Source: Gammaproteobacteria bacterium (lineage in GTDB: Bacteria; Gemmatimonadota; Gemmatimonadetes; Longimicrobiales; Gaopeijiaceae). From it: a stretch of 64,000 nucleotides of DNA. Positions 3,001 through 60,988 of the stretch are shown one piece after another. Made by a program: the position numbers and the translations under genes. The notes under the pieces were generated by a model. That model was not told the origin of the DNA and ran no database searches. It worked only from the letters and a program-made list of their open reading frames with translations. How positions within the stretch are numbered: the first letter of the stretch is position 1; each line of letters starts with the position of its first letter. Location of the stretch: contig VXMG01000121.1 of the NCBI GenBank assembly GCA_009841185.1, positions 20,271 to 84,270 of the forward strand, written 5' to 3'.

Positions 3001-3907
3001 TCCGGGCGACATGTCTCCATTGCCCATGCCCTGGGACACCGAAGTTCTGAAGACTCTGATCGAGCTCTTGGGCGGCCAATACACGCCCTGGCGGCCCGGG
3101 TACTCCGGAATGCTCTCCAGGGCCGAAGAGGATCGGCTGAAGGTGGAAGGTCTGGTAGCGCGTTGGGCAACCACTTTGGCGAACCGCACGGACCGCAAGT
3201 CCTGCGAGGCTCTTCAATCACTTGTCGAAAACCCTGCACTCCAGCCATGGCACTCCACGCTTGGCACTGAGCACGCCGAGCAGGTGGTAGCTCGCCGAAA
3301 CGCCACCTTCTCGGTGCCGGATCTGCTCGCGATTCAGAACACTCTGACCAACGATCGACCCGCCAGTCCCGTGGACCTGGCTGCGCTCGTGGCGGACAGG
3401 CTCGAAATCCTCGCTGCGCAGATCCAGCACGGAAATACGGATGACTGGCGTCAGTACTGGAACGAAGGCAGCAGCAGCTCGTTGCCAAGACCAAAGCACG
3501 AAGATGCGTGCCGGGACGCGCTTCTATCCGATCTACGGCAACTTCTGCCGGATGGCGTCGACGCTCAGCCCGAAGGGCAATACGCCAGGGATAAGCGGGC
3601 GGACATCCGCGTCTCCTTCAACGGCTCCGCCATCCCGGTGGAAATCAAGAAGAACTCCCATCGGAACCTCTGGAGTGCCGTCGCCAGCCAGCTTGTGCGG
3701 CAGTACACGATCGATCCCGACTCGTCCGGCTACGGCATCTATCTCGTGCTATGGTTCGGCCTCGGGAAGATGCCCGTTCCCCCCACCGGTCGCAGTCCAA
3801 AGACGCCGGACGCTCTGCGGGAGCGCCTCGAAGAGCAACTCGAGGGGCCCTACCGGCACAAGGTCACGGTGATCGTGATCGACGTGAGTGGATCGTCCGA
3901 CATCTGA
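2..3907 (+). CDS. STAND/NACHT-like NTPase, 5'-truncated by the window edge. Long helical-repeat middle region and a C-terminal PD-(D/E)xK-like nuclease module.
   Basis: The frame of ORF 146..3907 stays open back to nt 2 (RAVPGS...HAETLFIDGLDEVRAGRPDALRPMDL). 'LFIDGLDE' is a NACHT/STAND Walker-B motif. It is followed by 'LRLSCRAADW', 'LHLEPLRGEDIVRIL' and 'LANPHSLELL', typical of the post-Walker-B and winged-helix part. About 800 aa of L/A/R-rich helical repeats follow. The last ~130 aa carry E (KHEDACRD), D (ADIRVSF), ExK (PVEIKK) and Q (QLVRQY) with restriction-endonuclease-fold spacing. Confidence 0.75.
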   Translation, partial: RAVPGSRAVTARRFTSGSLDQHPEWHAETLFIDGLDEVRAGRPDALRPMDLILDRLGHLGRPNLRLSCRAADWLGRNDLQDIASTAGYEDVRVLHLEPLRGEDIVRILADLGVPDPRGFIREAGERGLGGLLANPHSLELLVKAKGGDEWPRDRRATFVQACRRLAREPNPKHRAAQRSAPMVSLDRIMAAAGHLSALLLLSDKEHVSIDGSEDPDSLWLEDIPVGDHPALLRALKSNLFSVDPDGGFVPPHRQLAEFLGARFLHTRIDSGVPASRVLALMTGEDGVVVTELRGLSAWLAAFDGLSRRCLIRTDPVGIALYGDVQGFRSDKKESLLRAFAERADEIRAWSWPPVALASLIDSHTVRLLHGYLGDEDRGEGRQAVVGLLLSGFAHASGVQPSRTVLEQAVRDVTWQPRVRHLALRALLHHSGSREDGVPSLRALLDDIRDGRVEDRDGELAGTLLSALYPDHVGPDEIWDYLLPRRPSMVGAYILFWSTRLLRKTPGNDVIALIQALLAKGEDFRQQLSDQGFGDVVLALLANALAAAGDDTRVATLYDWLELMDFEEFGAARMRAAGHSEVSGWLAQRPNLQKKLALEGLGRRLRHDDSEVSGEGLYRAWMVRSTIFGAGAPEDFAEWCLTRAVEVAETRLEVALALLEWSRPWHEEHGVSGVSIEDVREATKDVPALHAEVELILAPPREPKKLMLLREEDRAYARERRRKKAGFIAQVRESAPELRQGRCAPGLLHRMAQPYHDFFLRQRVESPLMRVADLLDGDVDLAETAIEGFRKVTERPDLPTLREFIRLAERDRMSYFALPLLAGFAEMPPESVDSLSPVEIARAVGLYYLIPLNVEGHPAWYRRALESHPSAVAEAAIKVSRSRIRARRDCLHLWEFAREPSHRVVAGLTVPSLLRAFPTRCTEPQVAALHDVLLAAVRWQPDGIEEAIRIRAARPGMDVSQEALWLAAGLFLSPEEFLPALVAFVGEGEEVRLRQIVRFLAPGDMSPLPMPWDTEVLKTLIELLGGQYTPWRPGYSGMLSRAEEDRLKVEGLVARWATTLANRTDRKSCEALQSLVENPALQPWHSTLGTEHAEQVVARRNATFSVPDLLAIQNTLTNDRPASPVDLAALVADRLEILAAQIQHGNTDDWRQYWNEGSSSSLPRPKHEDACRDALLSDLRQLLPDGVDAQPEGQYARDKRADIRVSFNGSAIPVEIKKNSHRNLWSAVASQLVRQYTIDPDSSGYGIYLVLWFGLGKMPVPPTGRSPKTPDALRERLEEQLEGPYRHKVTVIVIDVSGSSDI

Positions 3908-9706: not shown

Positions 9707-10837
9707 ATGATCCCGAAAGCCAACGGCCGGATCCCGCGCCGCGTCGATCGACTGCCTCCGTTTCCGGAGGGGTGGTACTTCATCGCGACCCGCGACACCC
9801 TGCTGAAGGAAAAGCTCATCGAGAAGGCCTGGATGGGCGAGCAGATCGTCGCGTGGTGCGACGACGATGGCCGCGTCTGCGTGGCGGACGCGTTCTGCCC
9901 GCACCTGGGCTCGCACCTGGGGCCGACGGCTGGCGGCACCATCCGGGACGGCTGCCTCGTTTGTCCCTTCCACGGCTTCACCTTCGATGCCACCGGTCAG
10001 TGCGTCGCGACGCCCAACGCTCCGGCCCCCAGAGCCGCGAAGCTGCAACTCTACGAGACCCGGGAGATCCTGGGCATGGTCTTCGCCTGGTATGGCGCCG
10101 GCGGGCGGGCGCCGCAGTGGGATCTGCCGGAGGAGCCCCCCACGGGCGCGGACTGGAGCGGGCTGCGTTTCGCCACCATGGGCTTCCGGGGCCATCCCCA
10201 GGAGACGACAGAGAACTCGGTGGACGTCGAGCACCTGGAGTACACGCACGGCTACCGGGATGTGGAGCCGACCGCCTTTTCCATCGACGGCGCCTACCTG
10301 AAGAGCTGCTTCGAGTTCACGAACGTCCGCACCGTCGCGGGGCTGATCGACATCGTGTCCGAGGTATCGGCCGTCACCCACGTCCATGGGCTGGGATTCT
10401 CGTTCGTCGAGGTTCACGAGAAGACGATCGGCATGGACTCCAGGCTGTGGGTGCTCTCGACCCCGGTCGACGGCGAGTTGGTCGAGTTGACGCTCGTCAG
10501 CCAGGCGCGCGAAGTCGCCAGGCCCGGGCGCTACATCGCCGGGCTGGGGTTCCTGCCGAAGAAGCTCCGCAACAGGCTGATGAACCGCATCCTGATCTAC
10601 GAGGAGCGGCGGTTCGTCGCACAGGACGTGGTCATCTGGGAGCGGAAACGCTACCAGTCCCCGCCGCGTCTCTGCCGGGCTGACGGGCCCATCGGCAAGT
10701 ACCGGCTGTATTGCCGTCAGTTCTACTCCGACATAGGTATCAGTAAGACCGCCGGTCCAGCTTCGGATCGTGGGCTGCGCCGCGCGTGGGCGGATCGAAT
10801 TGGATCCGGGCATCTGCCGGAGGGGAACGGGACATGA
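9707..10837 (+). CDS. Rieske [2Fe-2S] non-heme-iron oxygenase, Neverland (cholesterol 7-desaturase)/KshA-like
   Basis: Rieske ligands 'CPHLGSHLG' and 'CPFHGFTF'. Mononuclear iron motif 'ENSVDVEHLEYTH' (D-x2-H-x4-H). Size of about 376 aa is typical of KshA/Neverland-type single-component alpha subunits. Confidence 0.9.
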   Translation: MIPKANGRIPRRVDRLPPFPEGWYFIATRDTLLKEKLIEKAWMGEQIVAWCDDDGRVCVADAFCPHLGSHLGPTAGGTIRDGCLVCPFHGFTFDATGQCVATPNAPAPRAAKLQLYETREILGMVFAWYGAGGRAPQWDLPEEPPTGADWSGLRFATMGFRGHPQETTENSVDVEHLEYTHGYRDVEPTAFSIDGAYLKSCFEFTNVRTVAGLIDIVSEVSAVTHVHGLGFSFVEVHEKTIGMDSRLWVLSTPVDGELVELTLVSQAREVARPGRYIAGLGFLPKKLRNRLMNRILIYEERRFVAQDVVIWERKRYQSPPRLCRADGPIGKYRLYCRQFYSDIGISKTAGPASDRGLRRAWADRIGSGHLPEGNGT

Positions 10838-10934
10838 TGGAACCGCAGCGTATGGTGAACGTACTGATGATGGCGCATCACTTTACGCTCGAGATGGCGC
10901 CGAAGAGCTGAGACGGATTCATCCTCGGAAGACG

Positions 10935-12146
10935 ATGATCCGCCAGCCGCCGTTGCGAGCCGGTTCGGGAGAGGATTTGGAAGTTCCCGGTGCCTACGTC
11001 GAGGGGTACGAGGCCGCCCGCCAGCACGATCCGGAGCTCGCGGAGGCCTACGTCCGCAACACGATGATCGGTGATCCGCTGGCGGATGCCGTCGTCCGGG
11101 ATCTTTCGGACCTGGATCCCGGGGAACTGCACCAGACGCTGGCGCAGGCACTGGACAATCCCCACGCACCGCAGACGGGCGCCCCCGATTCCCTCGTCGA
11201 GTTCGTCGATTACTCCACCGCCGTGCCGGACTGGTTCGACGCCGACATCGCCCGCATGGCCTCGCGCGCCTTTCTGCGCAACTCGGACATCGTTCTCGCG
11301 GCCCTGGTGGGCGGCAGCATCGTCGAGGGGTTCTCCACCCTGATCAGCAAGTCGTTCCGGATCCGGGGACGGGTCACCAACTCGGGCGTGCGGCGCCTCA
11401 AGCAGAACGGGATGCAGCTTGTCGAGCAGTACCTGCCGGGTGGAATGGAGCCCGGGGGGGACGGATGGAGGCTCACCCTGCGCGTCCGGCTGGTGCACGC
11501 CCAGTCCCGATACCTGATCAACCAGTCCGATGAATGGGATCACGACCGGCTGGGAGAACCGATCAGCGCCGCGCACGTGCTCCTGGCCGGGGCGGCCTTC
11601 TCGGGCCGGCTGATGCGGCACGTGGCCACGCTGGGGGGTGACTTCAGCAGGGAGGAGCGGGAGGCCTACATTCACGTCTGGCGCTACACCGGGCTGCTCA
11701 TGGGCATCCCGGAGGATATCATCTTCGACGACGAAGCCTCGGCTTGCCGGGCGTTCGAGATCGGCTCCATGTGCGAACCTCCCGCGGACCTGGACGCGAT
11801 CATCATGGCCAACAGCATCGTGAACAGCGCGCCCGTCATCATCGGTGTCACGGACCCCGCAGAGCGCCGGAAGATGGCCCGCGTCGTGACCCAGGCGTCG
11901 CGGGAGCTGATCGGCGAGGAGCTCGCCGATTCATTCATGTTTCCCACCCGCAGGCGGAAGGTGATCCCCTGGATGCGGATTCAGAACCGGTCCCGGGGCG
12001 TCATCCGCAAGGTGCTTCCCCGCCTGGGGGCGAAGCAGGATCGGGCCCGGTTCGACGCCCTCATGGAGTTCGCCGGCTTCGAGAAGCTGAGGTACTCGTA
12101 CCGGTTGCCGACCGCGCTGCACGACGAGCACTCGTCGGACTGGTAG
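10935..12146 (+). CDS. MpaB/DUF2236-family oxygenase (family related to rubber oxygenase Lcp)
   Basis: Internal ATG at 10935 (MIRQPP...), chosen because the track ORF start overlaps the Rieske gene. 'RLVHAQSRYL' and 'HVWRYTGLLMG' are motifs I associate with DUF2236/MpaB. Confidence 0.7.
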   Translation: MIRQPPLRAGSGEDLEVPGAYVEGYEAARQHDPELAEAYVRNTMIGDPLADAVVRDLSDLDPGELHQTLAQALDNPHAPQTGAPDSLVEFVDYSTAVPDWFDADIARMASRAFLRNSDIVLAALVGGSIVEGFSTLISKSFRIRGRVTNSGVRRLKQNGMQLVEQYLPGGMEPGGDGWRLTLRVRLVHAQSRYLINQSDEWDHDRLGEPISAAHVLLAGAAFSGRLMRHVATLGGDFSREEREAYIHVWRYTGLLMGIPEDIIFDDEASACRAFEIGSMCEPPADLDAIIMANSIVNSAPVIIGVTDPAERRKMARVVTQASRELIGEELADSFMFPTRRRKVIPWMRIQNRSRGVIRKVLPRLGAKQDRARFDALMEFAGFEKLRYSYRLPTALHDEHSSDW

Positions 12147-12179
12147 CTCAGGTCCCGGCCAGCGACACCAGGCCTGCGC

Positions 12180-13217
12180 CTAGCCCCCGACTCGCGTGAA
12201 CGTGAACGTTCCGATGGGCGCGTCCGAGAACGGGGTCATGCCGCGGAGGCTGCGGATGGGCCGCTTGGGCGAGGAGTCGGCGTTGGCGGAGGTGTAGGTG
12301 GTTCCGTCGTCGGTGCCCGAGTCGTAGGGATAGAGGGTGACCTGGAGTTCGTCCACCCACTGCCCCAGGTCGTCCATCAGCGACAGCGCGGAAACGCCCA
12401 CGAACCAGTCCGGGCTCGGCGCGATCATGGTGACCAGGGTGACGAGGGGGTAGTTCCCCCGGACGACGACGCGGGAGATGGTCGCGCTGGCCGGGCTGGT
12501 GCCGAGCCCGGGTCCGCTGATGATGGAGAGTGCGTTGGCCGGGAGGTGCGCGCGGATTTCCGACCTGAGCGTGCTGGTCCCGCCCGTTTCGGCCATGCTC
12601 TCGATGCCGGGGGTGGCCGTCTCGCCGCTCGCCCAGAAGCGGACGCCGTCGTCGTGCACCGCCCCGATGAGCGGCGAGAAGTGCGCGCCGCCCGGGTAGT
12701 CGGTCGGGTGGGTGGCGGCGCTCCAGGTGGCGTCGAAGACGACGCTGTAGACGGCCGAGTCCGGCGGGGCGGGGAGCTCCCCCGCGGCCGCACGGATGTC
12801 GGTCGACACTCCCCCGGCCACCGACGCCGTGAGGGTCTGGGCACCGGCCGCATCGCCGAGCGTCCAGGTCGTGGCGGCCAGGCCGGCCGCGTCGGTGGCC
12901 GCGGTCGCGGGGTCGGCGGATCCGTGCCCGGCGGCGGCGGAGAAGGTCACGGTGACGCCCGCGACCGGCGAGCCGCCCGCGTCGTCCACCCGCACCACCA
13001 CGGCCTCGGCGAGCGTGCTGCCCGCCATCCCTTCCTGCCCGCTCCCCGACACGACCACGATGGCCGCGGGGGCGCGTGGCGCCTCTCCGGGCGGTTCGGT
13101 GCCGGAGTCGCCGCCGCAGGCGGCCAGCGCCGCAATGACGGGGATGCTTCCGAGGAGGGCCGGGAGGCCGTGGCTGCGGACGGAGGTCGATGCCCGCCGC
13201 CCGCCCGCATCACCCAA
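12180..13217 (-). CDS. Lipoprotein with a bacterial Ig-like domain and a spondin_N domain
   Basis: Lipobox 'AALAACGG'. Big-like repeat (VVSGSGQ...TVTFSAAAGHGS...TWTLG). C-terminal half 'FDATWSAATHPTDYPGGAHFSPLIGAVH...PSPDWFVGV...YPYDSGTDDG' matches spondin_N. The only in-frame start is TTG, 5 nt after the P450 stop. Confidence 0.75.
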   Translation of the reverse strand: MGDAGGRRASTSVRSHGLPALLGSIPVIAALAACGGDSGTEPPGEAPRAPAAIVVVSGSGQEGMAGSTLAEAVVVRVDDAGGSPVAGVTVTFSAAAGHGSADPATAATDAAGLAATTWTLGDAAGAQTLTASVAGGVSTDIRAAAGELPAPPDSAVYSVVFDATWSAATHPTDYPGGAHFSPLIGAVHDDGVRFWASGETATPGIESMAETGGTSTLRSEIRAHLPANALSIISGPGLGTSPASATISRVVVRGNYPLVTLVTMIAPSPDWFVGVSALSLMDDLGQWVDELQVTLYPYDSGTDDGTTYTSANADSSPKRPIRSLRGMTPFSDAPIGTFTFTRVGG

Positions 13218-13222
13218 CGCGG

Positions 13223-15250
13223 TCAGGACGGCAGCTCACGCACCTGCTCTGCGATGCGGAACTTGAGGTCCTTGCTCGGCTTCATCGACGGAAAGGGGCT
13301 GAATCGAAACTTGTAGTTCGCCGGCGACACCTCGATCGTGAAGTAATGCGCGACCAAAAGGAGGTTGACGCCCAGTTGCAGCTCCATCCACCGGGAGCCG
13401 AGGCACCTGTGTGTGCCCAGGCCATAGGGGGCGTACCCCGGGCTGCGGTGCTCATTGCGGGGATCCTTGTAGCGGTCGATATCGAAGGTGAAGGGGTCCG
13501 GGAAAACATCCTCCATGAAATGCGAGGCCGTCTGGGCGATGGCGACCCGCGTTCCAATCGGTATCTCGTAGTTCTCGACCACCCAGGTGTTCATCACGTT
13601 CCGCATGGACATCGGGACGATCGGGTACAGCCGCAGGCATTCCTTGATGAAACGGCGGGTGACGTCCATCGCGGAAAGGTTGAGGTCGTCGCCACCCGGT
13701 TCTCCGTCTTCGAAGAAGACACCGGCCTCATCCCGGATTCTGGCATAAAGCTCGGGCTGTGACGCCATGGCATAGAGCGCGCAGTTGAATCCATCCCCGA
13801 GATACACGCTGGCAACCAGCGCGGCCGACAGGGCGAACCGCAGATTCGACTCCGGTACGAACTGTGGATCGCTCGCGTGCAGGCTCAGCCAGTCATCGGC
13901 AAGGCTGCGCGGGCAGCCGGCCCGCTGGGCGGGAGTATGGACGCTGTAGACCCGTTCCAGCAACGTCTCCACTGCCTGCGCCCGGCGCTTCATTCCCGGG
14001 GTCTTCAGCATGAACTTGGGAAGGCCGTTCAGGATGTGGACGTTGAGTGCGCGTTCCTTGAACACGATCAGATCGTCGATGATATCCTGCGAATCCACGC
14101 TCAACATGAGAGGAGAGATCTGACTGTTGATCATGCGTCGGCAAAGGCGTCTTGCCGGGTAGGTGTCACCCACCGTCCAATCCGCCATGTATGCACGGGC
14201 CTGACGAAACAACAGGTCTCCCTGTCCTGCCAGCCTCGCGCGCGAGACGCCTGGCGCCATGGACTTGCGAAGCCGGAAGTGGTCTGCGCCATCGAGGGAG
14301 GGCAGGACTCCGGACGCACCATAGACTTTCTCGAAGTCGGCGAAATAGTCCCTGGCTCTCAGATACCTGCGCCCGTGCCGATTAACCCGGCGGTTTGTCC
14401 GCGGTCCGGCGAGGAAGATCATGGGTTGCGAGAACGGCGGCCGGAGCTCGAACACCGGGCCGTACTCCCTGGCCAGATCCGCGACGAGCGCGGGCAGGTT
14501 GCCACTGCGCAGGTGAGGATTCAACAGCAACTTGCGCAGCGGGACACGCGGAATCTGCTTCGCGAGGCGGGACCGCTGAACCACCGGGCCACCGAGGTTG
14601 GTCACCACCGCAGCCGCGATCGAGCGGCCGATCAGGTCCATCCTGCAGATGAGCTCGATGCGCTCGTGAGCCTCGTCGTCCAGTTGGAATATGAAACGAA
14701 AGACATCACACGAGTTCACCAGGCAGATGATGATGATGTCTCTCGGGTCCGGGATTTCCTCGGTGAAGATGACCTTGCCGATGCGCGTCCTGATGAACTG
14801 GCGTGCGGTGCCTTCCTCGGTGTCGCCGTACAGTTCCGTCTGCCAGACCCTGCGAGCCAGGGTCCAGAACTCGCCGTCGTGATGTTGCAGGATCTTGAGT
14901 TCAACCAGGCGGTCCAGCGTCAGATCGATGATCGACTCGGCACGGTGCGCGAGGTGCTCGATCCAGTACTGGGCGTTCCGTTGAACTCGCTCGTCTGCGA
15001 TCTCCTTCAGAATGGGGTCCAGTGCGGGGTCGCCCGTTTCCGTCGCGTCCACCAGGAACAGCGACTCCATGTCCGTGTCGATGCGCGTCAGGAGTGAGAG
15101 TTCCGCGAGCACCGCGCCGATGACGGCGCAATGCAGCCGCCAGCCGGGCACCTGGTGGAAGTAGCCGTTTTCCTCGTTGAGGAGCATCAGGATGAGCTCC
15201 TCGGGCAGCGTCAGCGCCTGGGTGGAGACATTCTCTGTCGCAACAGCCAT
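13223..15250 (-). CDS. GOLPH3/GPP34-like domain fused to a cytochrome P450
   Basis: The N-terminal ~200 aa 'LTLPEELILMLLNEENGYF...' are GPP34-like. The C-terminus has the ExxR motif 'KECLRLYP' and the heme loop 'YGLGTHRCLGSRWME'. Confidence 0.85.
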   Translation of the reverse strand: MAVATENVSTQALTLPEELILMLLNEENGYFHQVPGWRLHCAVIGAVLAELSLLTRIDTDMESLFLVDATETGDPALDPILKEIADERVQRNAQYWIEHLAHRAESIIDLTLDRLVELKILQHHDGEFWTLARRVWQTELYGDTEEGTARQFIRTRIGKVIFTEEIPDPRDIIIICLVNSCDVFRFIFQLDDEAHERIELICRMDLIGRSIAAAVVTNLGGPVVQRSRLAKQIPRVPLRKLLLNPHLRSGNLPALVADLAREYGPVFELRPPFSQPMIFLAGPRTNRRVNRHGRRYLRARDYFADFEKVYGASGVLPSLDGADHFRLRKSMAPGVSRARLAGQGDLLFRQARAYMADWTVGDTYPARRLCRRMINSQISPLMLSVDSQDIIDDLIVFKERALNVHILNGLPKFMLKTPGMKRRAQAVETLLERVYSVHTPAQRAGCPRSLADDWLSLHASDPQFVPESNLRFALSAALVASVYLGDGFNCALYAMASQPELYARIRDEAGVFFEDGEPGGDDLNLSAMDVTRRFIKECLRLYPIVPMSMRNVMNTWVVENYEIPIGTRVAIAQTASHFMEDVFPDPFTFDIDRYKDPRNEHRSPGYAPYGLGTHRCLGSRWMELQLGVNLLLVAHYFTIEVSPANYKFRFSPFPSMKPSKDLKFRIAEQVRELPS

Positions 15251-15627
15251 CAGCGTTGGCCCCTCGTCTCGATACGGGAAGACTGCCTCACCAACCTCGG
15301 CAACCTCATGCTCCGTTTCTCTTCGTCAGACGCCGGGACGGAAGGTTCAGCCCCGTTTCGGCGGTCGCCCAAACCCGAGCTTCCTACAGCTAAGATACAC
15401 CTGAGCATGAGCATAGCTCCACGGGCACGGCTGCGTCAAACGGAATCTGTCGCGAGAAAGCGTCGTTGTGACGCAACACCCGGCGATTCCTCGAGAGCCG
15501 ATCCCTGGATCGCGTTCGCCGGCGGTATCGCGCGCACCGCAGGGTGCCTTGATGGTGCACGGCGAGTACCCAATTAGTATCCTGTCCGTGCGCGTCCCTC
15601 GTCCACACCCAGGCCGATCCAGCACAA

Positions 15628-18600
15628 ATGAGTCGGAACTCAAACAACCACGGCGAACCGGGCGGCCCTATCGCCTATATGGCGAGCAACAGCGTCGCCG
15701 CCAATCTGCTGATGCTCGGGATCATCGCAGCGGGTCTGGTGTCGCTGACCGGTCTCGAGCAGGAGGGATGGCCCGAGGTACCCTTCAACCAGTTCGAGAT
15801 CTCCGTGCCCTTCCCCGGCGCAACCCCCGAGGAGGTGGAGGAGGCCATCGTCGTCAAGATCGAGGACCAGGTCCGGGGACTCGCCGATGTGAAGGCGGTC
15901 AGGTCCATAGCCGCCCCGGGGATGGCGTCCGTCAGGGTTGAAGTCAACTCCGGCACGGACATGGGCGCCAAGAAGGACGAGATCGAGTCGGCGGTCGGGC
16001 GTATTCAGACGTTTCCGGGCGGAGCCGAGCGGCCACAGATACGCGAGATGACCAACGCCCAGAGCATGATTCGCCTGGTCGTCTACGGCGACGTTCCCGA
16101 GCGCTCGCTGAAGGAACTCGCGTACCGGATCGAAGACGAGCTCGCTGCGCTTCCCTCCGTCTCCCAGGTCGCGACCAGCGGAGTGCGCAACTACGAGGTT
16201 TCGATCGAGGTGCCGCTACAGCGTCTCAGGGCTCTCGGCCTGACCCTGACCGATATCGCGAACACGATTCGCCGCAACTCACTGGACCTGTCCGCGGGGA
16301 GCATCGATACGCGGGAGTCCCAGGTGCGGGTGCGCACCCTTGGCCAGAGCTACGACCAGCAGGATTTCGAGGAAATCGTTCTTCTCAGCCGGGACGACGG
16401 CACGGTCGTGCGCCTGGGTGATGTCGCCGAGGTGCGCGACGGTTTCCAGGACTCCGATCTGATCGTGCGGCACCAGGGCCAGCCCGCCGTCTTCGTCGAG
16501 GTATCCCAGGCGGAGGGCGAAAGGGTCATGAGCGTGGCCCGTGCCGTCCAGGAGCATGTGGCGAACGAGGTGGTGCCTTCACTCCCCGGTGGCGTGGGCG
16601 TGACCATCTGGAACGACGATTCCACGGCGTTCTCGGAGCGTGGCGCCCTCCTCCTCAAGAACGGGGCTCTGGGGCTGCTGCTGGTGTTGATCGCGCTGGG
16701 CCTGTTTCTGGAAGTCCGACTGGCCTTCTGGGTAGCCGTCGGCCTTGGCGTTGCGGGGATCGGCGCCCTGGCCGCCATGCTGGTGTTCGACATCCCGATC
16801 CACGCTGTCTCGCTCTTCTCTTTCGTACTCGCCATCGGAATCATCGTGGACGATGCGATCGTCGTGGCCGAACATATTCATCTGGAACGAATGCGAGGGA
16901 CGCCGGGCACCGTCGCCGCAATCCGCGGTGCGCGGCGGATCAAGGTGCCGCTGATCTTCGCGGTGCTCACCACCATCGTTGCGTTCGTCCCCCTGCTCTT
17001 CATTCCCGCAGGGTTCGGAGAAGTCTGGAAGGCGCTGCCCATCATCGTCATCGCCATGCTGGTGATCTCGCTGATCGAATCGCTGCTGGTGCTGCCCAAC
17101 CACCTGTCGCACCATCTGCACGGCCCCGGCTGGGCGCCCCGCACGGGCGCGGAACGGTTCGTCGCGCGCATCCAGGGTCGGGTCGACTCCCTGCTGAACA
17201 GCTTCATACAGGGCCCCCTGGATCACGGGATGCGGTTCGCGACCGATCGACCCGGCGTGACGCTCTCCGCAGCTATCGCTCTCTTCATACTCACCGTCTC
17301 CCTGCTGCCGGCCGGCATCGTGCCGACCACCTTCGCGACCGAGGTCGAGGGAGACTTCGTAACCGCCACCCTTCAGATGCCGGACGGAACCACCGCGCAG
17401 CAGACGGACGCGGTGGCACGGGAACTGGAGGCGGCCGGTCACCGGGTCATCCAGCGTCTTTCCGAGGGCCGGCCCGAAGATGCGGCTCCGCTTCTGTCCG
17501 GCGTTACGGTTGTCGTCGGGCAGCGGTCACGGATCGAGACCGGAGGTCTCAACCCCTCGCCCACGCTGAACCCCGAAGCCAACATCGCCACCATCGAGTT
17601 CAAGCTCCTGCCGGCGCAGCAGCGGCGCATCACTTCGGGAGAAGTCATGCAGGCCTGGCGTGAGGAGGTGGGCATCCTGCCCCATGTGCGCGGGATCACC
17701 TTCATGAGCGAGATCTACACGCTGGGCAACCCGGTGGAAGCCGTGCTGTCCCATCCGGATCCGGAGCGCCTGGTAACGATCGCATCGTCCGTGGTCGATG
17801 AGCTCCGTCGAGTGGGGGGTGTCTTCGACATTCGCTCGGACCACACGCCCGGCATCCCTGAAGTCCAGTTGGGATTGCTGCCCGAAGCACGAACCCTCGG
17901 CCTCACGCTCGACGCGCTTGCCCAGCAGACGAGAGACGCTTTCTTTGGCGCGGAGGCCCTGCGGGTCCAGCGAGGACGCGACGAAGTCCGGGTCTACGTC
18001 CGGCTGCCCGAGGAGCAGCGCAACTCGATCACCGACATCGAGAGCTACCTCGTCCGTACGGCAACCGGCGCCGAGGTGCCGGTGAGCCGTGTGGCTTCAC
18101 TGAGCGCGGCCATGTCGCCGCCGGCCATCCGTCGCCAGGACGGCCAACGCGTTGCCACGGTCACTGCCGATGTAGACGCAAGTGTGATTTCCGCCGGGGA
18201 AGCCAATGGCATTCTGGAGAGCACCATCCTCGCGGGACTGGTCGATACGGACCCTGACCTGACCTACACCTTTGGTGGCGAACAACAGCAGCAGATCGAC
18301 TCTCTGGGTGCGCTCTACCGCGGTTTCGCGATAGCGTTGCTGATTATCTTCGCGCTGCTGGCCATTCCGCTGCGTTCCTATACCAAGCCGTTCATCATCA
18401 TGGCCATCATCCCGTTCGGGTTCGTCGGCGTGATCCTGGGCCACTGGATCCTGGGAGTGGCGGTGAGCGCGGAGTCCTTTGTCGGGATATTCGGCCTGGC
18501 CGGCGTGGTGGTGAACGATTCCCTGGTCATGATGGACTTCATCGATCAGGAACTTGAGGAGGGCCTTCCGGCGCGCGAGGCGATCATCGAGGGGGCCAAG

Positions 18601-18807
18601 GGCCGTTTTCGTCCGATCATGCTGACTTCGCTCACCACCTTCCTCGGCTTTACGCCGCTGATTCTCGAAGACGCAATTCAGGCGCAGTTCTTCGTTCCTT
18701 TCTCCGCCTCGATCGGGTGCGGCATCCTCTTTACCACGGCCATCCTGATGTTCCTGGTGCCCGCGCTTTCCTCGCTGCGCCTGCACTTGACCACCCGGGG
18801 CTCCTAG
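15628..18807 (+). CDS. RND-superfamily efflux permease (AcrB/HAE-like, 12 TM), with no adaptor or OMF gene adjacent
   Basis: 1059 aa. AcrB-like N-terminus 'SNSVAANLLMLGIIAAGL', large periplasmic loops, internally duplicated TM bundles. Confidence 0.95.
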   Translation: MSRNSNNHGEPGGPIAYMASNSVAANLLMLGIIAAGLVSLTGLEQEGWPEVPFNQFEISVPFPGATPEEVEEAIVVKIEDQVRGLADVKAVRSIAAPGMASVRVEVNSGTDMGAKKDEIESAVGRIQTFPGGAERPQIREMTNAQSMIRLVVYGDVPERSLKELAYRIEDELAALPSVSQVATSGVRNYEVSIEVPLQRLRALGLTLTDIANTIRRNSLDLSAGSIDTRESQVRVRTLGQSYDQQDFEEIVLLSRDDGTVVRLGDVAEVRDGFQDSDLIVRHQGQPAVFVEVSQAEGERVMSVARAVQEHVANEVVPSLPGGVGVTIWNDDSTAFSERGALLLKNGALGLLLVLIALGLFLEVRLAFWVAVGLGVAGIGALAAMLVFDIPIHAVSLFSFVLAIGIIVDDAIVVAEHIHLERMRGTPGTVAAIRGARRIKVPLIFAVLTTIVAFVPLLFIPAGFGEVWKALPIIVIAMLVISLIESLLVLPNHLSHHLHGPGWAPRTGAERFVARIQGRVDSLLNSFIQGPLDHGMRFATDRPGVTLSAAIALFILTVSLLPAGIVPTTFATEVEGDFVTATLQMPDGTTAQQTDAVARELEAAGHRVIQRLSEGRPEDAAPLLSGVTVVVGQRSRIETGGLNPSPTLNPEANIATIEFKLLPAQQRRITSGEVMQAWREEVGILPHVRGITFMSEIYTLGNPVEAVLSHPDPERLVTIASSVVDELRRVGGVFDIRSDHTPGIPEVQLGLLPEARTLGLTLDALAQQTRDAFFGAEALRVQRGRDEVRVYVRLPEEQRNSITDIESYLVRTATGAEVPVSRVASLSAAMSPPAIRRQDGQRVATVTADVDASVISAGEANGILESTILAGLVDTDPDLTYTFGGEQQQQIDSLGALYRGFAIALLIIFALLAIPLRSYTKPFIIMAIIPFGFVGVILGHWILGVAVSAESFVGIFGLAGVVVNDSLVMMDFIDQELEEGLPAREAIIEGAKGRFRPIMLTSLTTFLGFTPLILEDAIQAQFFVPFSASIGCGILFTTAILMFLVPALSSLRLHLTTRGS

Positions 18808-19847
18808 CCCTGAAGAGGCTTGCGCGCCAGGAAGCAGTAGAGCGGCGTGAAGATCCCGGTCCTGCCGCCGGCGACATAGGCGTCTGCAGTCCGATCCATA
18901 AGTTCGACAACCTCCGCCGATCCCCTGGGGAACACCCGCAGCAACTCGGCCAGCCTGGATGCCCAGAAAAACATCCTGCGACCCATGGGAGCCTGGACGA
19001 GAGCGCTCCCGAGCCACCCGCGCCGGGCCTCCATGGGCTGATACCACGGCGTGGTCGGACCGGTCTCGTCGACAGCGAGGTCCGTCGCTTCCAGGATTTC
19101 GAATCCGGCGGTTTCGAGGGCCCGGTCTGTCTCCGCGAACGTTGCGATGTCCCGGAGCGCGATGCCGTGCATCAGGTCGCGCTTGATGGCCCGGTGGCGA
19201 TCGTCGTGGGGATTGTACACATCCGTCATGCACATTTCCTGGCCCCAGAAAAGGGCTCCGGGCTTGAGGACACGGTGGATTTCGGCAAACGCGAGTGCCT
19301 TGTCGGGAGCATGGCAGGTCGATTCGATCGCGTAGCCCCGATCGAAGGTCCCGTCCGCGATGGAACTCATATTCATGAAGCTGCAAGCGAGGAAGTCGAT
19401 CATGTGATCGAGCCCCGCCTCGGCATTCAGCGACCTGGCCCTGCTCAACTGGACTTCACTGCTGTTGATTCCCAATACCCGGACGCCGGCCTCGCGGGCG
19501 ACGCGGCGCATTGGACCTCCGATCCCGCAACCGATGTCGGCCACCGTCATGCCCTCGCGCAGTTCCAGCTTGGCGATCATCTGCCGCTGGTGCCGGATCT
19601 TGGAGTCCTTCAGGCTCTCGCCGGGCGACAGCGGCGCAAAATGCAGGGATTCTCCCCAACCGAAGACCATCAATTCGCTACAAAGGTCGTAGTATTCCGT
19701 TGCGGTCCGGGTGTGGTCGTAGTCGGCTGCGCGGCCATCCGCGGCGAACGCTCTGTCCGTCCATCCTTCGAAATTCCGCACGCGGCGGCGGACGTTCGTT
19801 TCGCCGAACGCGGCCTTCAGTCCCCTGGATAGTCGACGCAGATGCAT
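18804..19847 (-). CDS. Sterol C-24 methyltransferase (ERG6/SMT)-type SAM-dependent methyltransferase
   Basis: Collinear with yeast ERG6 as I recall it: 'YYDLCSELMVFGWGESLHFAP' (cf. [20 protein letters not shown]), SAM motif 'DIGCGIGGP', 'YAIESTCHAP' (cf. YAIEATCHAP), and the C-terminal Sterol_MT_C-like 'GIFTPLYCFLARKP' (cf. KLFTPMMLFVARKP). Confidence 0.9.
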   Translation of the reverse strand: MHLRRLSRGLKAAFGETNVRRRVRNFEGWTDRAFAADGRAADYDHTRTATEYYDLCSELMVFGWGESLHFAPLSPGESLKDSKIRHQRQMIAKLELREGMTVADIGCGIGGPMRRVAREAGVRVLGINSSEVQLSRARSLNAEAGLDHMIDFLACSFMNMSSIADGTFDRGYAIESTCHAPDKALAFAEIHRVLKPGALFWGQEMCMTDVYNPHDDRHRAIKRDLMHGIALRDIATFAETDRALETAGFEILEATDLAVDETGPTTPWYQPMEARRGWLGSALVQAPMGRRMFFWASRLAELLRVFPRGSAEVVELMDRTADAYVAGGRTGIFTPLYCFLARKPLQG

Positions 19848-19911
19848 GGCAGGTCTTGGAGAGGCACTGGCGTTAGAGTCGTCCGCAACAGTCGTTGGCG
19901 CGAACTAAGGT

Positions 19912-19930
19912 GAAGGCACACGGTGCCTTC
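19912..19930. promoter_or_regulatory. Perfect inverted repeat GAAGGCAC-N3-GTGCCTTC in the divergent SMT/OMP intergenic region
   Basis: Read directly from the sequence. 8-bp arms with a 3-nt spacer, 65-83 nt upstream of the SMT start codon. Confidence 0.3.
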
Positions 19931-19954
19931 AGGCAAGGGGGACGGCGATGAACG

Positions 19955-20074
19955 ATGGGCAGGCGGCGCAAGGGGCGGCCACAGGAGTCGCCGCTCCATG
20001 TCGGCTATTCCATTCCGCGAGGGGGCGCGTTCCGGTACGTTTCGTGTCCCAACTACCTGGGAGAGCTGCTGGAG
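19955..20074 (+). pseudogene. Relic of a 3-oxo-5-alpha-steroid 4-dehydrogenase (SRD5A/TECR) family gene, C-terminal motif only
   Basis: In-frame upstream extension of the OMP ORF reads RRRKGRPQESPLHVGYSIPRGGAFRYVSCPNYLGELLE. Compare the SRD5A/TECR signature 'LR.LRKPG..GY.IPRGGLFEYVSC(A/P)NY.GE..EW'. An in-frame stop lies immediately upstream, and the motif runs straight into the OMP signal peptide. Confidence 0.4.
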
Positions 20075-20911
20075 ATGACGACTCGACTGGCTCCGGGCGT
20101 TCTGCTGGCCGCCGTGGCGGTTGGCACGATGCTCGGGCGCCCGATGAATGGGTCCGCGCAGGAGCCCGTGAGGGCACCGGCTGCCCCGGCGTCCCGTCCC
20201 CTGACTGCCGATCGCCCCGATTTCACGGAAGCGGCATCCGCCGTGGGCCGGGGCGTCCTCCAGATCGAGTTCGGCTACACGTTCGGCGGAGACTGGTCCG
20301 GCGGCAATTCGGTCCAGACCCATACGCTGGGCGAAATGCTGCTGCGCGCGGGGGTTGCGGCGGACTGGCTGGAACTCCGGGTGGCGGCCAGCCCGGTGAC
20401 CCGCGTGGACACCGAGGGAAGCGGAGCCAGCGACAGTGGGATCGAGGACCTCTACCTGGGCGCCAAGATCGAGTTCACCCGGCAGGCGGGCCGCCTTCCG
20501 GCGCTCGCGGTCCTGCCGCAGATGACGCTGCCCACGGGCAGCACGCTGTTCTCCGGCGGACGCGCGCTGCCGGGCGTGAATCTCGTCTACAGTTGGGATG
20601 CGCCCGGAGGATTCTCCCTGGCGGGCAGCACGCAGGTCAACCTGGCCGTCGCGGATGGCGACGACAGCTACCCCGAGTGGGCCCAGTCGGCGGTCGCGGG
20701 AGCCGGCGTCGGGACGCGCGGAGGCGTGTACGGCGAATGGTATGCGTTTCTGCCCACGGGGGCGGATGCCCCGCAGGAGCATTACTTCAATGCGGGCCTG
20801 ACCTGGCTCACAGCCGACGATTCGCAGTGGGACATCCGGGTCGGCGTCGGGCTGAACGATGCCGCCGAGGACTTCTTCGCGGGCGTGGGGGCGGCCATCA
20901 GGATGCGCTGA
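20075..20911 (+). CDS. Outer-membrane beta-barrel channel, 'MetA-pathway of phenol degradation'-like family
   Basis: Signal peptide MTTRLAPGVLLAAVAVGTMLG...AQE. 'DRPDFTEAASAVGRGVLQIEFGY' matches the N-terminal motif of that family. Alternating beta-strand pattern. Confidence 0.65.
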   Translation: MTTRLAPGVLLAAVAVGTMLGRPMNGSAQEPVRAPAAPASRPLTADRPDFTEAASAVGRGVLQIEFGYTFGGDWSGGNSVQTHTLGEMLLRAGVAADWLELRVAASPVTRVDTEGSGASDSGIEDLYLGAKIEFTRQAGRLPALAVLPQMTLPTGSTLFSGGRALPGVNLVYSWDAPGGFSLAGSTQVNLAVADGDDSYPEWAQSAVAGAGVGTRGGVYGEWYAFLPTGADAPQEHYFNAGLTWLTADDSQWDIRVGVGLNDAAEDFFAGVGAAIRMR

Positions 20912-26661: not shown

Positions 26662-28032
26662 CTACTCCCCGACCCGCCTGGCCTGCGCCCGCCCCATCCC
26701 GATGGAGAGCGCGATCCAGATGCCCGCAAGCGGCACGGTCGAGGCCGCCACCAGCGCCAGCGTCATGCCGAGGGCCGCAAAGGTGGCGTCGATCCCCGCG
26801 CCGGTGGCATCCCCCGCGCGATAGAGGAACACGTCGACCACGGGCTTCGCCTTGTACTTCTCGGAGGGTGTGACGACGCTGAACAGCGTCTCCCGCGAGG
26901 GCCTTGAGATGGCGTAACGGGTGGCCCGGTGCACCGCCTGGAAGATCAGGATGACCCCATACACGGGCCACACCGCCAGCACCGCGAACCCGGCGACCGT
27001 CACCAGCGGCAGGATCGCGAGGGTCCAGCCCACGCCCAGCTTCTTGATGATGCGCGTTGTGATGAAGATCTGGGTCAGGAGCGTCGCGAACTGGGCCAGG
27101 AAGTCGAAGTTGGCGAAGCTCTCCACCCGCTGGCTGAAGGTGTCGGTGGCCTGCTGGATGATGTTGGCCTGGGTGAAGTAGATCATGGTGTTGGAGATGG
27201 CCATGAACACCACCCACAGCCCGACGCCCAGCAGGTACGGGGAGGCCACGACCGCCTTGGCGCCCTCCCAGAAGGTGCCGCCGATCCGGGTGCTGCCGTC
27301 GGGCGCCGCGATGTCGCGGCGACCCTTCGGGAGCGCCTCCAGGCGGGACGCGCGCGACCGGAGGGCCATCCGGTCCAGCCACAGCACCGTCGCGATCGCG
27401 ATGCCGTAGCAGGCGCAGGCGAGCAGCATCAGCCCGGCGGGCAGGTAGGACGACTCCGTCATCCCGCTGATGATGCTGGTGGCCTCCGCCCCGGCCAGCG
27501 CGCCCAGGGTGCCGCCGATGCCGATGAAGGCGAACATCCTCTTCCCCTGGTCCACGTCGAAGATGTCGACCATGAAGGCCCAGAAGAGGCTGGTGGTGAA
27601 GAGGTTGATCACCGTCAGCCACACGAAGAAGGTGTAGCCCACGCCGCGTGCGAGAGCGGTTTCGGCATCGGTGCCGATGAGCCCGCCGCCGGCCCGCACG
27701 TCCTGGATGATCAGCCCCGAGAAGACGAACAGGCACGCGATCACGAAGAGGAAGGCCACCGGGATGAAGCGGCGCCGGTTCATGCGCGCTACCACTCCGC
27801 CGAAGGCCAGCACCGCCGCCAGCGAGATGATCGAGGTGACGACGAAGAGCCAGCGCAGTTCGTCCATTCCGCGGGCCACGCCCATGGCTTCGCGCACCGG
27901 CCGCAGGAAGAAGTACCCGCAGAGCACGAAGAAGAAGAAGATCGCGGAGAGGGCGGCGAGCGGGAGTTCGCCTCGTTCCATGTTGAGGAGGCGCGCCGCT
28001 ATGCCCTGATCCTGCGTCGTCGAGTCTGCCAT
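26662..28032 (-). CDS. MFS-type transporter resembling the ATP:ADP antiporter (TLC/NTT) family
   Basis: Start at MADSTTQDQG. 'LAALSAIFFFFVLCGYFFLRPVREAMGV' is like the TLC N-terminal helix. About 12 TM segments. Confidence 0.6.
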   Translation of the reverse strand: MADSTTQDQGIAARLLNMERGELPLAALSAIFFFFVLCGYFFLRPVREAMGVARGMDELRWLFVVTSIISLAAVLAFGGVVARMNRRRFIPVAFLFVIACLFVFSGLIIQDVRAGGGLIGTDAETALARGVGYTFFVWLTVINLFTTSLFWAFMVDIFDVDQGKRMFAFIGIGGTLGALAGAEATSIISGMTESSYLPAGLMLLACACYGIAIATVLWLDRMALRSRASRLEALPKGRRDIAAPDGSTRIGGTFWEGAKAVVASPYLLGVGLWVVFMAISNTMIYFTQANIIQQATDTFSQRVESFANFDFLAQFATLLTQIFITTRIIKKLGVGWTLAILPLVTVAGFAVLAVWPVYGVILIFQAVHRATRYAISRPSRETLFSVVTPSEKYKAKPVVDVFLYRAGDATGAGIDATFAALGMTLALVAASTVPLAGIWIALSIGMGRAQARRVGE

Positions 28033-28364
28033 GCGCCCCCGATCCTCCGCGACAGTGCCGCCTCGCGCCGTGCCCCATCTGGAAAACGAAGCACGCCGGG
28101 AGGCCTGGATGGCCCTCCCGGAAGGCCCCGGCGGTGATGTGGGTTCGATGTAGGCCGGGCACCGGATCAAGTCAAGCCGATGGGCGTCCTCGCGTGGCGT
28201 GTCGCCCGGTGTCACTGGGGCATCTCCTCGAGGGCTCACACCACCCCGAAAGGGCGCATTCATGTGCCGTCGGGACGACTTTGCCCGGTTCCCTTTGCGC
28301 GCGCGCTGGCTGCGGCTACCATCAGGACTGCGAGCCTTCCATCGATTATCCCGGAGGTCACCGA

Positions 28365-39091: not shown

Positions 39092-39202
39092 CGTGTGTTC
39101 CTCGGGGCGGTAGTGTGCAGGGACGGAAAGAGTGTAGACGGGGGACGCCTCGACCGCCAAGTTGCCGGAACAGCATCCGTCTTCGACCAGGGATCGTGAA
39201 TC

Positions 39203-55052: not shown

Positions 55053-55063
55053 GGAGAAGGGGA

Positions 55064-60934: not shown

Positions 60935-60988
60935 AACTCACTCCAGCGACTCCTCCATCGCAACTCACCCCAGGGACTCTTCCATCGC
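60935..60988. repeat. 27-bp tandem repeat x2 spanning the HNH gene stop codon
   Basis: aactcactccagcgactcctccatcgc / aactcaccccagggactcttccatcgc, 24 of 27 identical. The second copy encodes the C-terminal residues of the HNH protein. Confidence 0.8.

Follow-up and report, generated by a model that had tools for sequence, protein, structure and literature searches.

The locus between positions 9,707 and 20,911 of the DNA analysed here raises the question of what substrate and what process unite its genes. The DNA, hereafter the window, comprises 64,000 nucleotides of contig VXMG01000121.1 from a metagenome-assembled genome (MAG; GCA_009841185.1), and an initial annotation made from the letters alone had grouped eight of its elements as a candidate locus for the tailoring and trafficking of sterol-type lipids. 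In the present study, gene calling from GC content at codon positions together with Pfam matches recovered all eight elements where they had been placed. Four of them, namely a KshA-like Rieske oxygenase, a GPP34-P450 fusion, an RND pump and a methyltransferase resembling sterol methyltransferases (SMTs), form a core that is conserved in other lineages, and judging from sequence we consider it fairly probable that this core is a horizontally mobile module of sponge-associated bacteria for the late-stage tailoring of sterols and for their membrane trafficking. The core is arranged in the window as follows:

9,707-10,837, plus strand: Rieske oxygenase with a KshA_C domain (Pfam Rieske 58 bits; KshA_C 82 bits, full length).
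13,223-15,250, minus strand: GPP34-P450 fusion of the kind called GPP34_L (GPP34 101 bits, amino acids 15-215; p450 118 bits).
15,251-15,627: intergenic region of 377 bp between the divergent P450 and RND genes, with the presumed promoters (GC 0.62).
15,628-18,807, plus strand: AcrB-type RND permease (ACR_tran 518 bits).
18,804-19,847, minus strand: SMT-family methyltransferase (Methyltransf_11 62 bits; Sterol_MT_C 56 bits).

The conservation of the core was assessed by tblastn and by all-against-all clustering of open reading frames (ORFs) in 80 genomic loci that contain SMT homologs, 463 relatives of the SMT being present in the genome collection. Together with locus L001 the set comes to 81 loci, 60 of them from Chloroflexota, and the window's own lineage is represented by five (L001-L003, L009 and L012). 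The GPP34-P450 fusion recurs beside the SMT in 55-58 of the 80 loci, lying within 10 kb in 58, and a Rieske/KshA_C protein does so in 39-51, with homologs of 54-76% identity adjoining the SMT in 51 of the 81. A transporter of the RND superfamily adjoins the SMT in 61 of the 80 loci, representing nine of eleven lineages. The SMT and the fused P450 occur together in four of the five loci of the window's lineage, in all eight from Gemmatimonadota and in 42 of the 60 from Chloroflexota, and also in Acidimicrobiales, Rhodospirillaceae, Bryobacterales and Binatia; the sponge-associated MAGs that carry the core are labelled Gammaproteobacteria, Gemmatimonadota, Chloroflexota, Acidobacteriota, Binatia, Rhodospirillaceae and Acidimicrobiales, among others. 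The Rieske, P450 and RND genes of three Gemmatimonadota loci (L004, L008 and L014) run in the same direction with gaps of 11-14 nucleotides, which looks like an operon. A reverse search from the P450 in an independent metagenome collection returned ten loci, and the SMT adjoined it in five of the eight with enough flanking DNA; most of the P450 loci that lacked the SMT had a gene for an FAD oxidase, a Rieske protein or an MMPL transporter. The eight elements had initially been treated as one grouping. Conservation in other lineages applies to the four core genes; the MpaB-family oxygenase, the spondin_N lipoprotein, the MetA-type porin and the steroid 5-alpha-reductase relic were confined, among the 80 loci, to the window's own lineage.

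It appears most likely from the sequences that the core module is horizontally mobile. The P450, RND and SMT genes have GC contents of 0.62-0.65 versus approximately 0.70 in their flanks, the window as a whole being at approximately 68%. MAGs labelled Gammaproteobacteria and MAGs labelled Gemmatimonadota, the flanking genes of which are entirely different, have RND genes that are 94% identical and SMT genes that are 85-93% identical. Moreover, the RND gene is 82-84% identical to the copies in Acidobacteriota and Rhodothermales, and the FAD oxidase that accompanies the module in other lineages is approximately 81% identical among Chloroflexota, Gemmatimonadota and Binatia.

The NCBI labels of the window lineage conflict with one another: most of its MAGs (at least ten) are labelled Gammaproteobacteria, one is labelled Gemmatimonadetes, and one contig of 1.8 kb is labelled Latescibacterota. 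The taxonomic label is insecure because of the close relative labelled Gemmatimonadetes. An RND cluster at 90% identity also contains both Gammaproteobacteria and Gemmatimonadota labels, and the mixture reflects either a very recent inter-phylum transfer or errors in binning or labelling. The window proteins have NCBI entries (MYD00164, Rieske; MYD00166, spondin; MYD00167, P450; MYD00168, RND; and others through MYD00179) on a 212-kb contig of a MAG labelled 'Gammaproteobacteria bacterium', the window SMT is also present on the ENA scaffold ENGE20-1_SAMN12347671, and the closest genome loci belong to a series of sponge MAGs (SB06xx, RHO, COS and APA bins) and to long-read sponge metagenomes.

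The link to sterols is seen most clearly in a single locus from a Binatia MAG (L059), in which genes of the module and genes of sterol synthesis lie in one 20-kb cluster. Its contents are the following:

a KshA_C-type Rieske protein, 68% identical to the window Rieske;
a first GPP34-P450 fusion, 44% identical to that of the window;
a second GPP34-P450 fusion;
an FAD amine-oxidase-like gene;
an SdmB-like short-chain dehydrogenase/reductase (301 bits);
an SdmA-like Rieske/VanA_C protein (408 bits);
a canonical SMT;
a window-type SMT, 72% identical to the window SMT;
an SMO-OSC fusion;
a true CYP51 with the AGQHTS and PIFGRGVAYD signatures;
an ERG4/24 fragment;
two plus-strand ORFs (13,139-13,966 and 14,118-15,281) without a Pfam match, located between a fused P450 and the SMO-OSC gene, the first of which encodes a polytopic membrane protein.

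As read from its genes, this locus is the steroid gene cluster of Kelly et al. with the module added, and we regard it as decisive for the sterol link; its two unannotated ORFs are candidates for functions in the sterol pathway. ERG4_ERG24 reductases are also found near the SMT in 6-7 loci, and in six Chloroflexota loci they adjoin the module. Further points in favour of sterols are the Sterol_MT_C domain of the methyltransferase and a relic of the Steroid_dh family beside its gene. The proposal of a sterol-type tailoring and trafficking locus is thus backed by the module shared across phyla, by the Binatia cluster and by the ERG4/24 neighbours, and several of its particulars fail, as described below.

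If the module acts as we propose, a sterol resident in the cytoplasmic membrane would have its side chain alkylated by the divergent SMT. It would then be oxidised or desaturated, with the rings as the presumed target of the KshA/Neverland-type Rieske oxygenase and a second position as that of the P450. The GPP34 domain would not bind phosphatidylinositol 4-phosphate (PI4P) and may instead be a peripheral membrane or neutral-lipid handling domain, which would hold the soluble P450 at the bilayer and present the substrate to it. The transporter of the RND superfamily may carry the substrate or the product from the inner membrane to the outer envelope or in the reverse direction. The sterol itself would be supplied either by a separate SMO-OSC/CYP51/ERG24 cluster located elsewhere in the genome or by the sponge host.

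Regarding the methyltransferase, the window protein has the domain architecture of an SMT, with Sterol_MT_C at 56 bits exceeding the cutoff of 21.7. In an alignment to yeast ERG6 it keeps 22 of the 25 residues that are conserved in experimentally active SMTs; the ERG6 sequence used was presumably correct, its numbering agreeing with every position named in the preprint by Brown and Welander. Within the Binatia cluster, the window-type and the canonical SMT are 44% identical to each other, and by its sequence the window protein belongs to a divergent SMT clade. The contigs of two loci with window-type SMTs (L083 and L091) are not in the list of contigs tested by Brown et al. (2023).

The divergence of this enzyme bears on the first alternative, namely that the substrate is a non-sterol isoprenoid or lipid, such as squalene, a hopanoid-like triterpenoid, a carotenoid- or retinoid-type compound or a polyprenyl lipid. 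The SMT would then methylate a terminal isopropylidene group, the oxygenases would decorate the product and the pump would export it. The changes in Region I of the window SMT affect positions 81, 82 and 89, which contact the sterol, and in Botryococcus both squalene and botryococcene are methylated by enzymes of the SMT family. Among cultured organisms, the P450 domain has its nearest relatives in Herpetosiphon, in proteins named 'P450 120', and the CYP120 family acts on retinoids; isoprenoid double bonds are the target that MpaB/Lcp enzymes cleave; and the window has no cyclase. We nevertheless consider a non-sterol substrate unlikely. The module is embedded with SMO-OSC, CYP51, SdmA/B-like and ERG24 genes in Binatia and adjoins ERG4/24 genes in Chloroflexota, Rieske proteins of the KshA_C type belong to steroid-acting families, the MMPL transporters that replace the pump match the sterol-sensing domain, and Sterol_MT_C and most of the residues invariant among SMTs are kept.

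The Rieske oxygenase has intact metal-binding motifs (CPH...CPFH and DVEHLEYTH, the latter corresponding to DxxHxxxxH). Its best match in the PDB is KshA, at 78 bits and covering only the N-terminal 165 residues, and all 120 of its homologs among the matches listed are unnamed 'Rieske 2Fe-2S' proteins. Its identification as SdmA was rejected on a score of 34 bits versus a cutoff of 600 (NCBIfam NF052579). Neverland also carries the KshA_C domain. Neither a KshB reductase gene nor a catabolic gene context was found in the 64-kb window or among the conserved neighbour families.

The resemblance to KshA suggests a second alternative, in which the locus initiates steroid uptake and catabolism: a KshA-like 9-alpha-hydroxylase and a CYP125-like side-chain oxidase would attack host sterols for use as a carbon source. 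A P450 and KshA are the classic pair of oxygenases in bacterial cholesterol degradation, KshA enzymes are the closest relatives with solved structures that the Rieske protein has, and a porin for hydrophobic compounds and a pump lie close by. This explanation is very unlikely in our view: KshB, KstD, Hsa, FadD/FadE and other catabolic genes are absent from the window and from the conserved neighbours, the gene most tightly linked is that of an anabolic S-adenosylmethionine-dependent methyltransferase, the same genes accompany OSC, CYP51 and SdmAB in a biosynthetic cluster, and the match to KshA is restricted to half of the protein.

In the GPP34-P450 fusion, the GPP34 domain covers positions 1-198 of the 201 in the profile, and an HHalign comparison with human GOLPH3 gave a probability of 95.8%; a phmmer search of the domain against the PDB returned no match. 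Eukaryotic GOLPH3 binds PI4P. The human sequence that we used is taken to be the correct one, the numbering of all four pocket residues being in agreement. In the fused proteins, W81 of the pocket is kept in 55 of 57, and the three arginines are replaced in 55-57 of 57: R90 by valine, isoleucine or alanine, R171 by glutamate or aspartate, and R174 by isoleucine or valine. We therefore rejected the domain as a PI4P binder on account of the replacement of the three basic residues. Neither a signal peptide nor a transmembrane segment was found in the fusion protein. An AlphaFold2 model of the whole fusion, the alignment for which was built from proteins of a representative search, has a pLDDT of 89 and a pTM of 0.83, with a short and poorly ordered linker, which suggests a fixed two-domain assembly. 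On these sequence features, GPP34 probably tethers the P450 to the membrane or passes it a neutral lipid. Published fusions join GPP34 with a Rieske domain and with an ABC ATPase (PMC11706023), and are consistent with an accessory role for GPP34 with enzymes acting on membrane lipids.

The P450 domain has the haem cysteine motif YGLGTHRCLG and the ExxR motif, both of which are invariant in the family. Its I-helix (amino acids 480-487 of the window protein) has ASVYLGDG in place of AGxDT/AGQHTS, aligned to AGHHTSSG of the CYP51 of Methylococcus capsulatus, and lacks the acid-alcohol pair. Because the cysteine and ExxR motifs are invariant and the I-helix has no threonine, we regard this protein, by its sequence, as a probably functional haem-thiolate protein that may have an unusual oxygen chemistry. 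The family includes two I-helix types: a canonical AG(L/I)(D/E)T (AGLDT) in most clusters and a threonine-less A(S/G)xY(L/V)-G with a one-residue deletion. All of the SMT-linked fusions, including both copies in the Binatia cluster, are of the threonine-less type, and no other type is SMT-linked. An exhaustive search returned 266 clusters at E<1e-30, and the nearest relatives that are not fused are unnamed or the above-mentioned Herpetosiphon proteins, the names of which were assigned automatically. The closest solved family is CYP51 (81 bits), and a Foldseek search with the AlphaFold2 model also ranked CYP51 first, with a TM score of 0.83, nearly tied with BM3, so that the fold does not discriminate between them. 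The protein was rejected as a CYP51 on the I-helix (AGQHT/sS) and B'-helix (PxFGxxVxF/YD) signatures, and also because the Binatia cluster contains a true CYP51 in addition to its two fused P450s.

The pocket residues of the GPP34 domain bear on a third alternative, in which the fusion is an effector that is secreted, binds PI4P and prevents the phagosomes of sponge cells from maturing (Microbiome 2025), with the neighbouring genes being incidental. GPP34_L was reported to be exclusive to sponge symbionts, in approximately 16-20 phyla (PMC11706023), and the PI4P binding of eukaryotic GOLPH3 noted above fits such a role. We hold it to be highly improbable here, considering that the basic residues of the pocket are hydrophobic or acidic in nearly all of the fused proteins, that no signal peptide is present, that an enzyme with haem, being dependent on redox partners or a co-substrate, is unlikely as a secreted effector, and that synteny with lipid enzymes and transporters extends across phyla. 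The report on GPP34_L (PMC11706023) did not examine the pocket residues, secretion signals or SMT neighbours.

Regarding the RND permease, the match to the NCBIfam model RND_permease_2 (406 bits) is below the cutoff of 1250, and multidrug pumps in the PDB match at approximately 235 bits. Copies that are 82-98% identical adjoin the SMT in loci labelled Gemmatimonadota, Rhodothermales, Bryobacterales and Terriglobia. AcrB-type pumps are found beside the SMT in 15-16 loci, in the diderm lineages, whereas MMPL/HAE3 transporters with sterol-sensing-domain hits take the same position in 40-43 loci, all from Chloroflexota (MMPL-type in 43 of 60) or Acidimicrobiales. More divergent MMPL proteins are present at the module position in Rhodospirillaceae (L055) and Thermodesulfobacteriota (L049). 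Since the family of the transporter switches and its position is kept, transport is probably an integral part of the module. The RND gene (plus strand) and the SMT gene (minus strand) are convergent, and their stop codons share one palindromic CTAG (window 18,804-18,807); this tail-to-tail overlap is present in 16 of the 16 loci with an AcrB-type pump, including L002. As initially noted, the genes called in the 64-kb window include no HlyD/OEP-type adaptor or outer-membrane-factor gene, and the partners of a tripartite AcrAB-TolC system, for which there is no room in the 16 loci with an AcrB-type pump, are missing from it. The accompanying comparison of this pump with hopanoid and sterol RND transporters did not hold. 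The pump has the ACR_tran domain (PF00873), not MMPL (PF03176) as in HpnN and BstA; it scored 18 bits with HpnN versus a cutoff of 1100 and gave no match with BstA; and the MMPL, HAE3-type feature belongs instead to the proteins that take its place in Chloroflexota, L055 and L049. A chance juxtaposition of functionally unrelated genes, for which the five transcription units on alternating strands and the four elements of eight not conserved outside the lineage might speak, is hardly credible because of the synteny, the core genes being adjacent in at least nine lineages while the flanks differ completely, arranged like an operon in Gemmatimonadota, and the RND and SMT genes being joined at their stop codons in every locus with an AcrB-type pump.

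Two other kinds of genes were observed around the module. An FAD amine-oxidase-like or phytoene-desaturase-like protein of 460 amino acids recurs beside the SMT in 30-34 loci and is a module member in many lineages (L005, L006, L010, L026, L040 at 14,358-15,743, L059 and others); it is missing from the window. In 12 loci, an MFS transporter and an LppX/LprAFG-like lipoprotein recur near the module, for example in Chloroflexota L034 (16,771-19,094), L075 (3,853-6,299) and L057 (3,793-6,269), and this pair is similar to the mycobacterial lipid-export pair LprG-Rv1410.

Several points weigh against late-stage sterol tailoring and trafficking as the function of the core. The window SMT deviates from the invariants of active SMTs at T78S, F89L and L341M, the last of which is often seen in the clade, and its Region I has M81-V82-F83 (MVFGWGESLHF) versus a canonical Y/F81-E82, with isoleucine at position 249; the reference for Region I is 84-GWGxxFHF-91 (Brown and Welander, 2025 preprint). 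The same pattern was found in 75 of the 80 locus SMTs, the few canonical ones being second copies, and such deviations are taken in that preprint to predict inactivity on desmosterol and 24-methylenecholesterol, or a different substrate. Therefore, although SMT domains are present, the initial description of the enzyme as a full-length C-24 methyltransferase of the ERG6 type is not established with respect to C-24 specificity, because residues shared by all experimentally active SMTs are altered. The P450 lacks the CYP51 signature as well as the usual acid-alcohol pair, the pump is a generic AcrB-type permease the adaptors of which could be encoded elsewhere, and the clustered ORFs of the loci include no conserved ferredoxin or reductase partner near the module. 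The SMT stands alone in approximately 18 Chloroflexota loci, three of the eight informative P450 loci have no adjoining SMT, and the loci are phylogenetically non-independent given the preponderance of Chloroflexota. What the comparison shows is the gene content, the conserved synteny, the physical linkage with genes of sterol synthesis in other lineages and the features of individual residues; the substrate, the reaction of each enzyme, the direction of transport and the role of GPP34 are predicted from these.

To these points is added that none of the genes called in the 64-kb window is an OSC, SQMO, SdmA/B or ERG4/24 gene, in agreement with the initial remark that squalene epoxidase and oxidosqualene cyclase are lacking. 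A protein search with the Binatia SMO-OSC returned 787 matches, and none of the best 120 (72-89% identity) lies on a contig of the window lineage, the contigs of 4,009,809 bp and 212,014 bp included. Of 537 Ircinia MAGs, 115 were reported to contain ERG24-CYP51-LSS clusters, Gammaproteobacteria and Gemmatimonadetes being among them, and the SMT genes were described as 'scattered' and often located elsewhere on the chromosome (PMC9531527), and a sponge gammaproteobacterium with a cluster for de novo sterol synthesis has been described (PMC7074536). A distant cyclase is plausible because of these published clusters, and the sterol would come either from such a cluster of the bacterium's own or from the sponge.

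A further-reaching proposal, which we put forward as speculative and consider rather unlikely as it stands, is that GPP34 is an unrecognised bacterial domain for handling sterols or membranes, and that the module, with its divergent SMT, threonine-less GPP34-P450, KshA-like Rieske protein and RND or MMPL transporter, remodels host-derived or self-made sterols into unconventional sponge sterols in at least nine lineages. Candidate chemistries are alkylation of the side chain other than at C-24 or to a higher degree (26-methyl type), delta-5,7 or delta-22 unsaturation, and rearrangement of a sterol peroxide by a P450 that does not activate oxygen. The first animals are dated with the help of sponge-type steranes (24-isopropyl- and 26-methyl-cholestanes), and a bacterial contribution to these is actively disputed. 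If the proposal were true, bacteria would account for some of the sterane signal that serves as a 'sponge' biomarker, and sponge symbionts would be enriched in GPP34 on account of sterol metabolism, not evasion of the phagosome. A GPP34 domain that handles sterols or membranes would also be a new entry on the very short list of bacterial lipid-handling domains. Moreover, a GPP34-P450 located beside sterol genes and devoid of the PI4P residues provides a specific second hypothesis for a gene that is a hallmark of sponge symbiosis. The locus points to widespread, horizontally shared symbiont genes that would lend themselves to direct expression and assay, namely those of a divergent SMT clade, two oxygenases and a transporter.

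The remaining elements of the locus are lineage-specific additions or remnants:

10,770-12,146 (ORF; start probably at the ATG near 10,935), plus strand: haem oxygenase of the MpaB/Lcp family (MPAB_Lcp_cat 62 bits).
12,180-13,217, minus strand: lipoprotein with Big_1 and Spond_N domains (Spond_N 164 bits; lipobox LAAC).
19,991-20,074, plus strand: relic of a steroid 5-alpha-reductase-family gene, approximately 28 codons (Steroid_dh 30.7 bits).
20,075-20,911 (ORF opening at 19,955), plus strand: Phenol_MetA_deg beta-barrel, the MetA-type porin (Pfam 93 bits).

Homologs of the MpaB protein align to just 90% of the ORF, from which the later start was predicted. Its best match in the PDB is the rubber oxygenase Lcp (48 bits), the context of the proximal histidine (RLVHAQSRY) is conserved, and the gene was found only in L002, L009 and L012. 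The TTG start of the spondin_N gene lies 5 nucleotides past the P450 stop codon, and the two genes are operonic because of this gap; the translational coupling that had been proposed for them is only plausible. The first 40 codons of the ORF at 19,955-20,911 are not those of a porin: amino acids 13-40 match positions 69-96 of the 150 in the Steroid_dh profile (E=3.7e-7), and the relic motif GGAFRYVSCPNYLGELLE is upstream of, and in frame with, the porin start ATG at 20,075, from which the protein begins with MTTRL and has the signal peptide MTTRLAPGVLLAAVAVG. L002 confirms this start, its frame being open for only 6 codons ahead of the ATG. Among the relatives, L009 and L012 retain the relic intact, L003 has a decayed copy and L002 has none, and this graded decay identifies it as a genuine gene remnant, as had been supposed.

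Other features were observed elsewhere in the window. A gene at 26,662-28,506 (minus strand) has a weak match to the TLC ATP/ADP translocases (32 bits), the public gene call on L001 having PF03219; nucleotide translocases are typical of host-dependent bacteria. A protein of 1602 amino acids encoded at 35,696-40,504 (minus strand) contains Sortilin-Vps10 and BNR/Asp-box repeats, and both this protein and the Big_1/spondin_N lipoprotein are of the eukaryote-like kind that is enriched in sponge symbionts. Two tandem paralogous genes at 53,964-55,052 and approximately 55,060-56,185 (both plus strand) encode polytopic membrane proteins without a Pfam match, and the strong negative AT skew (approximately -0.4) at 54-56 kb is attributable to the hydrophobic codon usage of these two proteins; tandem repeats were looked for in this region and none were found. 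A gene at 60,965-62,593 (minus strand) encodes a DUF222 and HNH endonuclease protein, a family frequently tied to mobile DNA, and an ORF of 1253 amino acids at 146-3,907 (plus strand) has a coding-type codon bias and no Pfam match.

Among known systems, the bacterial SMTs of Brown et al. (2023; PMC10070321) and Brown and Welander (2025) share with the window protein the Methyltransf_11 and Sterol_MT_C domains, an origin in uncultured sponge-associated bacteria and horizontal spread, and the Binatia locus has the window-type SMT beside a canonical one and their SMO-OSC/CYP51/SdmAB set. However, their clusters are of the SMO-OSC, ERG11, ERG24, sdmA, sdmB and ERG6 type, whereas the window SMT falls in a separate clade, and the text and supplements of these papers make no mention of P450 fusions, KshA-type Rieske proteins or RND/MMPL transporters. 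The steroid gene clusters of Ircinia symbionts (CSGs; Kelly et al., 2022; PMC9531527) are similar in the host genus, the window MAG being from Ircinia ramosa, in the spread over phyla and in the signature of horizontal transfer; SMT genes are enriched there and sometimes flank a CSG. They differ in that the window has no CSG gene and in that the tailoring and transport genes of the module are not described in that work. The Rieske oxygenase has the Rieske and KshA_C architecture of KshA with intact iron ligands, in keeping with KshA/SdmA-type oxygenases, but the match covers the N-terminal half only (78 bits) and no gene for a KshB-type reductase is adjacent.

Regarding transport, the BstABC system of M. 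capsulatus and HpnN (PMC10942540) likewise comprise an inner-membrane transporter of the RND superfamily beside sterol or hopanoid enzymes without an adaptor or outer-membrane-factor gene, and BstA and HpnN belong to the same family (MMPL, PF03176) as the module transporters of Chloroflexota, Rhodospirillaceae and Thermodesulfobacteriota; the window pump differs in being AcrB-type, and no homologs of BstB or BstC were seen with it. With the GPP34_L proteins (PMC11706023), the window fusion shares an identical domain architecture and ecological distribution, and it is a member of this group. They were read there as PI4P-binding effectors of phagocytosis, with sterols and methyltransferases never mentioned, whereas the present analysis shows the linkage of their genes with those of the SMT, the Rieske protein and the RND pump and with OSC clusters, and the basic PI4P residues are missing. 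Our literature search found no paper with both GPP34 and a sterol methyltransferase, and none describing the module. Therefore, the initial view that this is not a described system applies to the linkage, for which no publication was found, and not to bacterial SMTs, symbiont steroid clusters or GPP34-P450 proteins, each of which has been published. Taken together, the kind of system represented by this locus, a bacterial sterol-modification cluster, is known, and the linkage of its genes and the residue-level arguments appear to be new.

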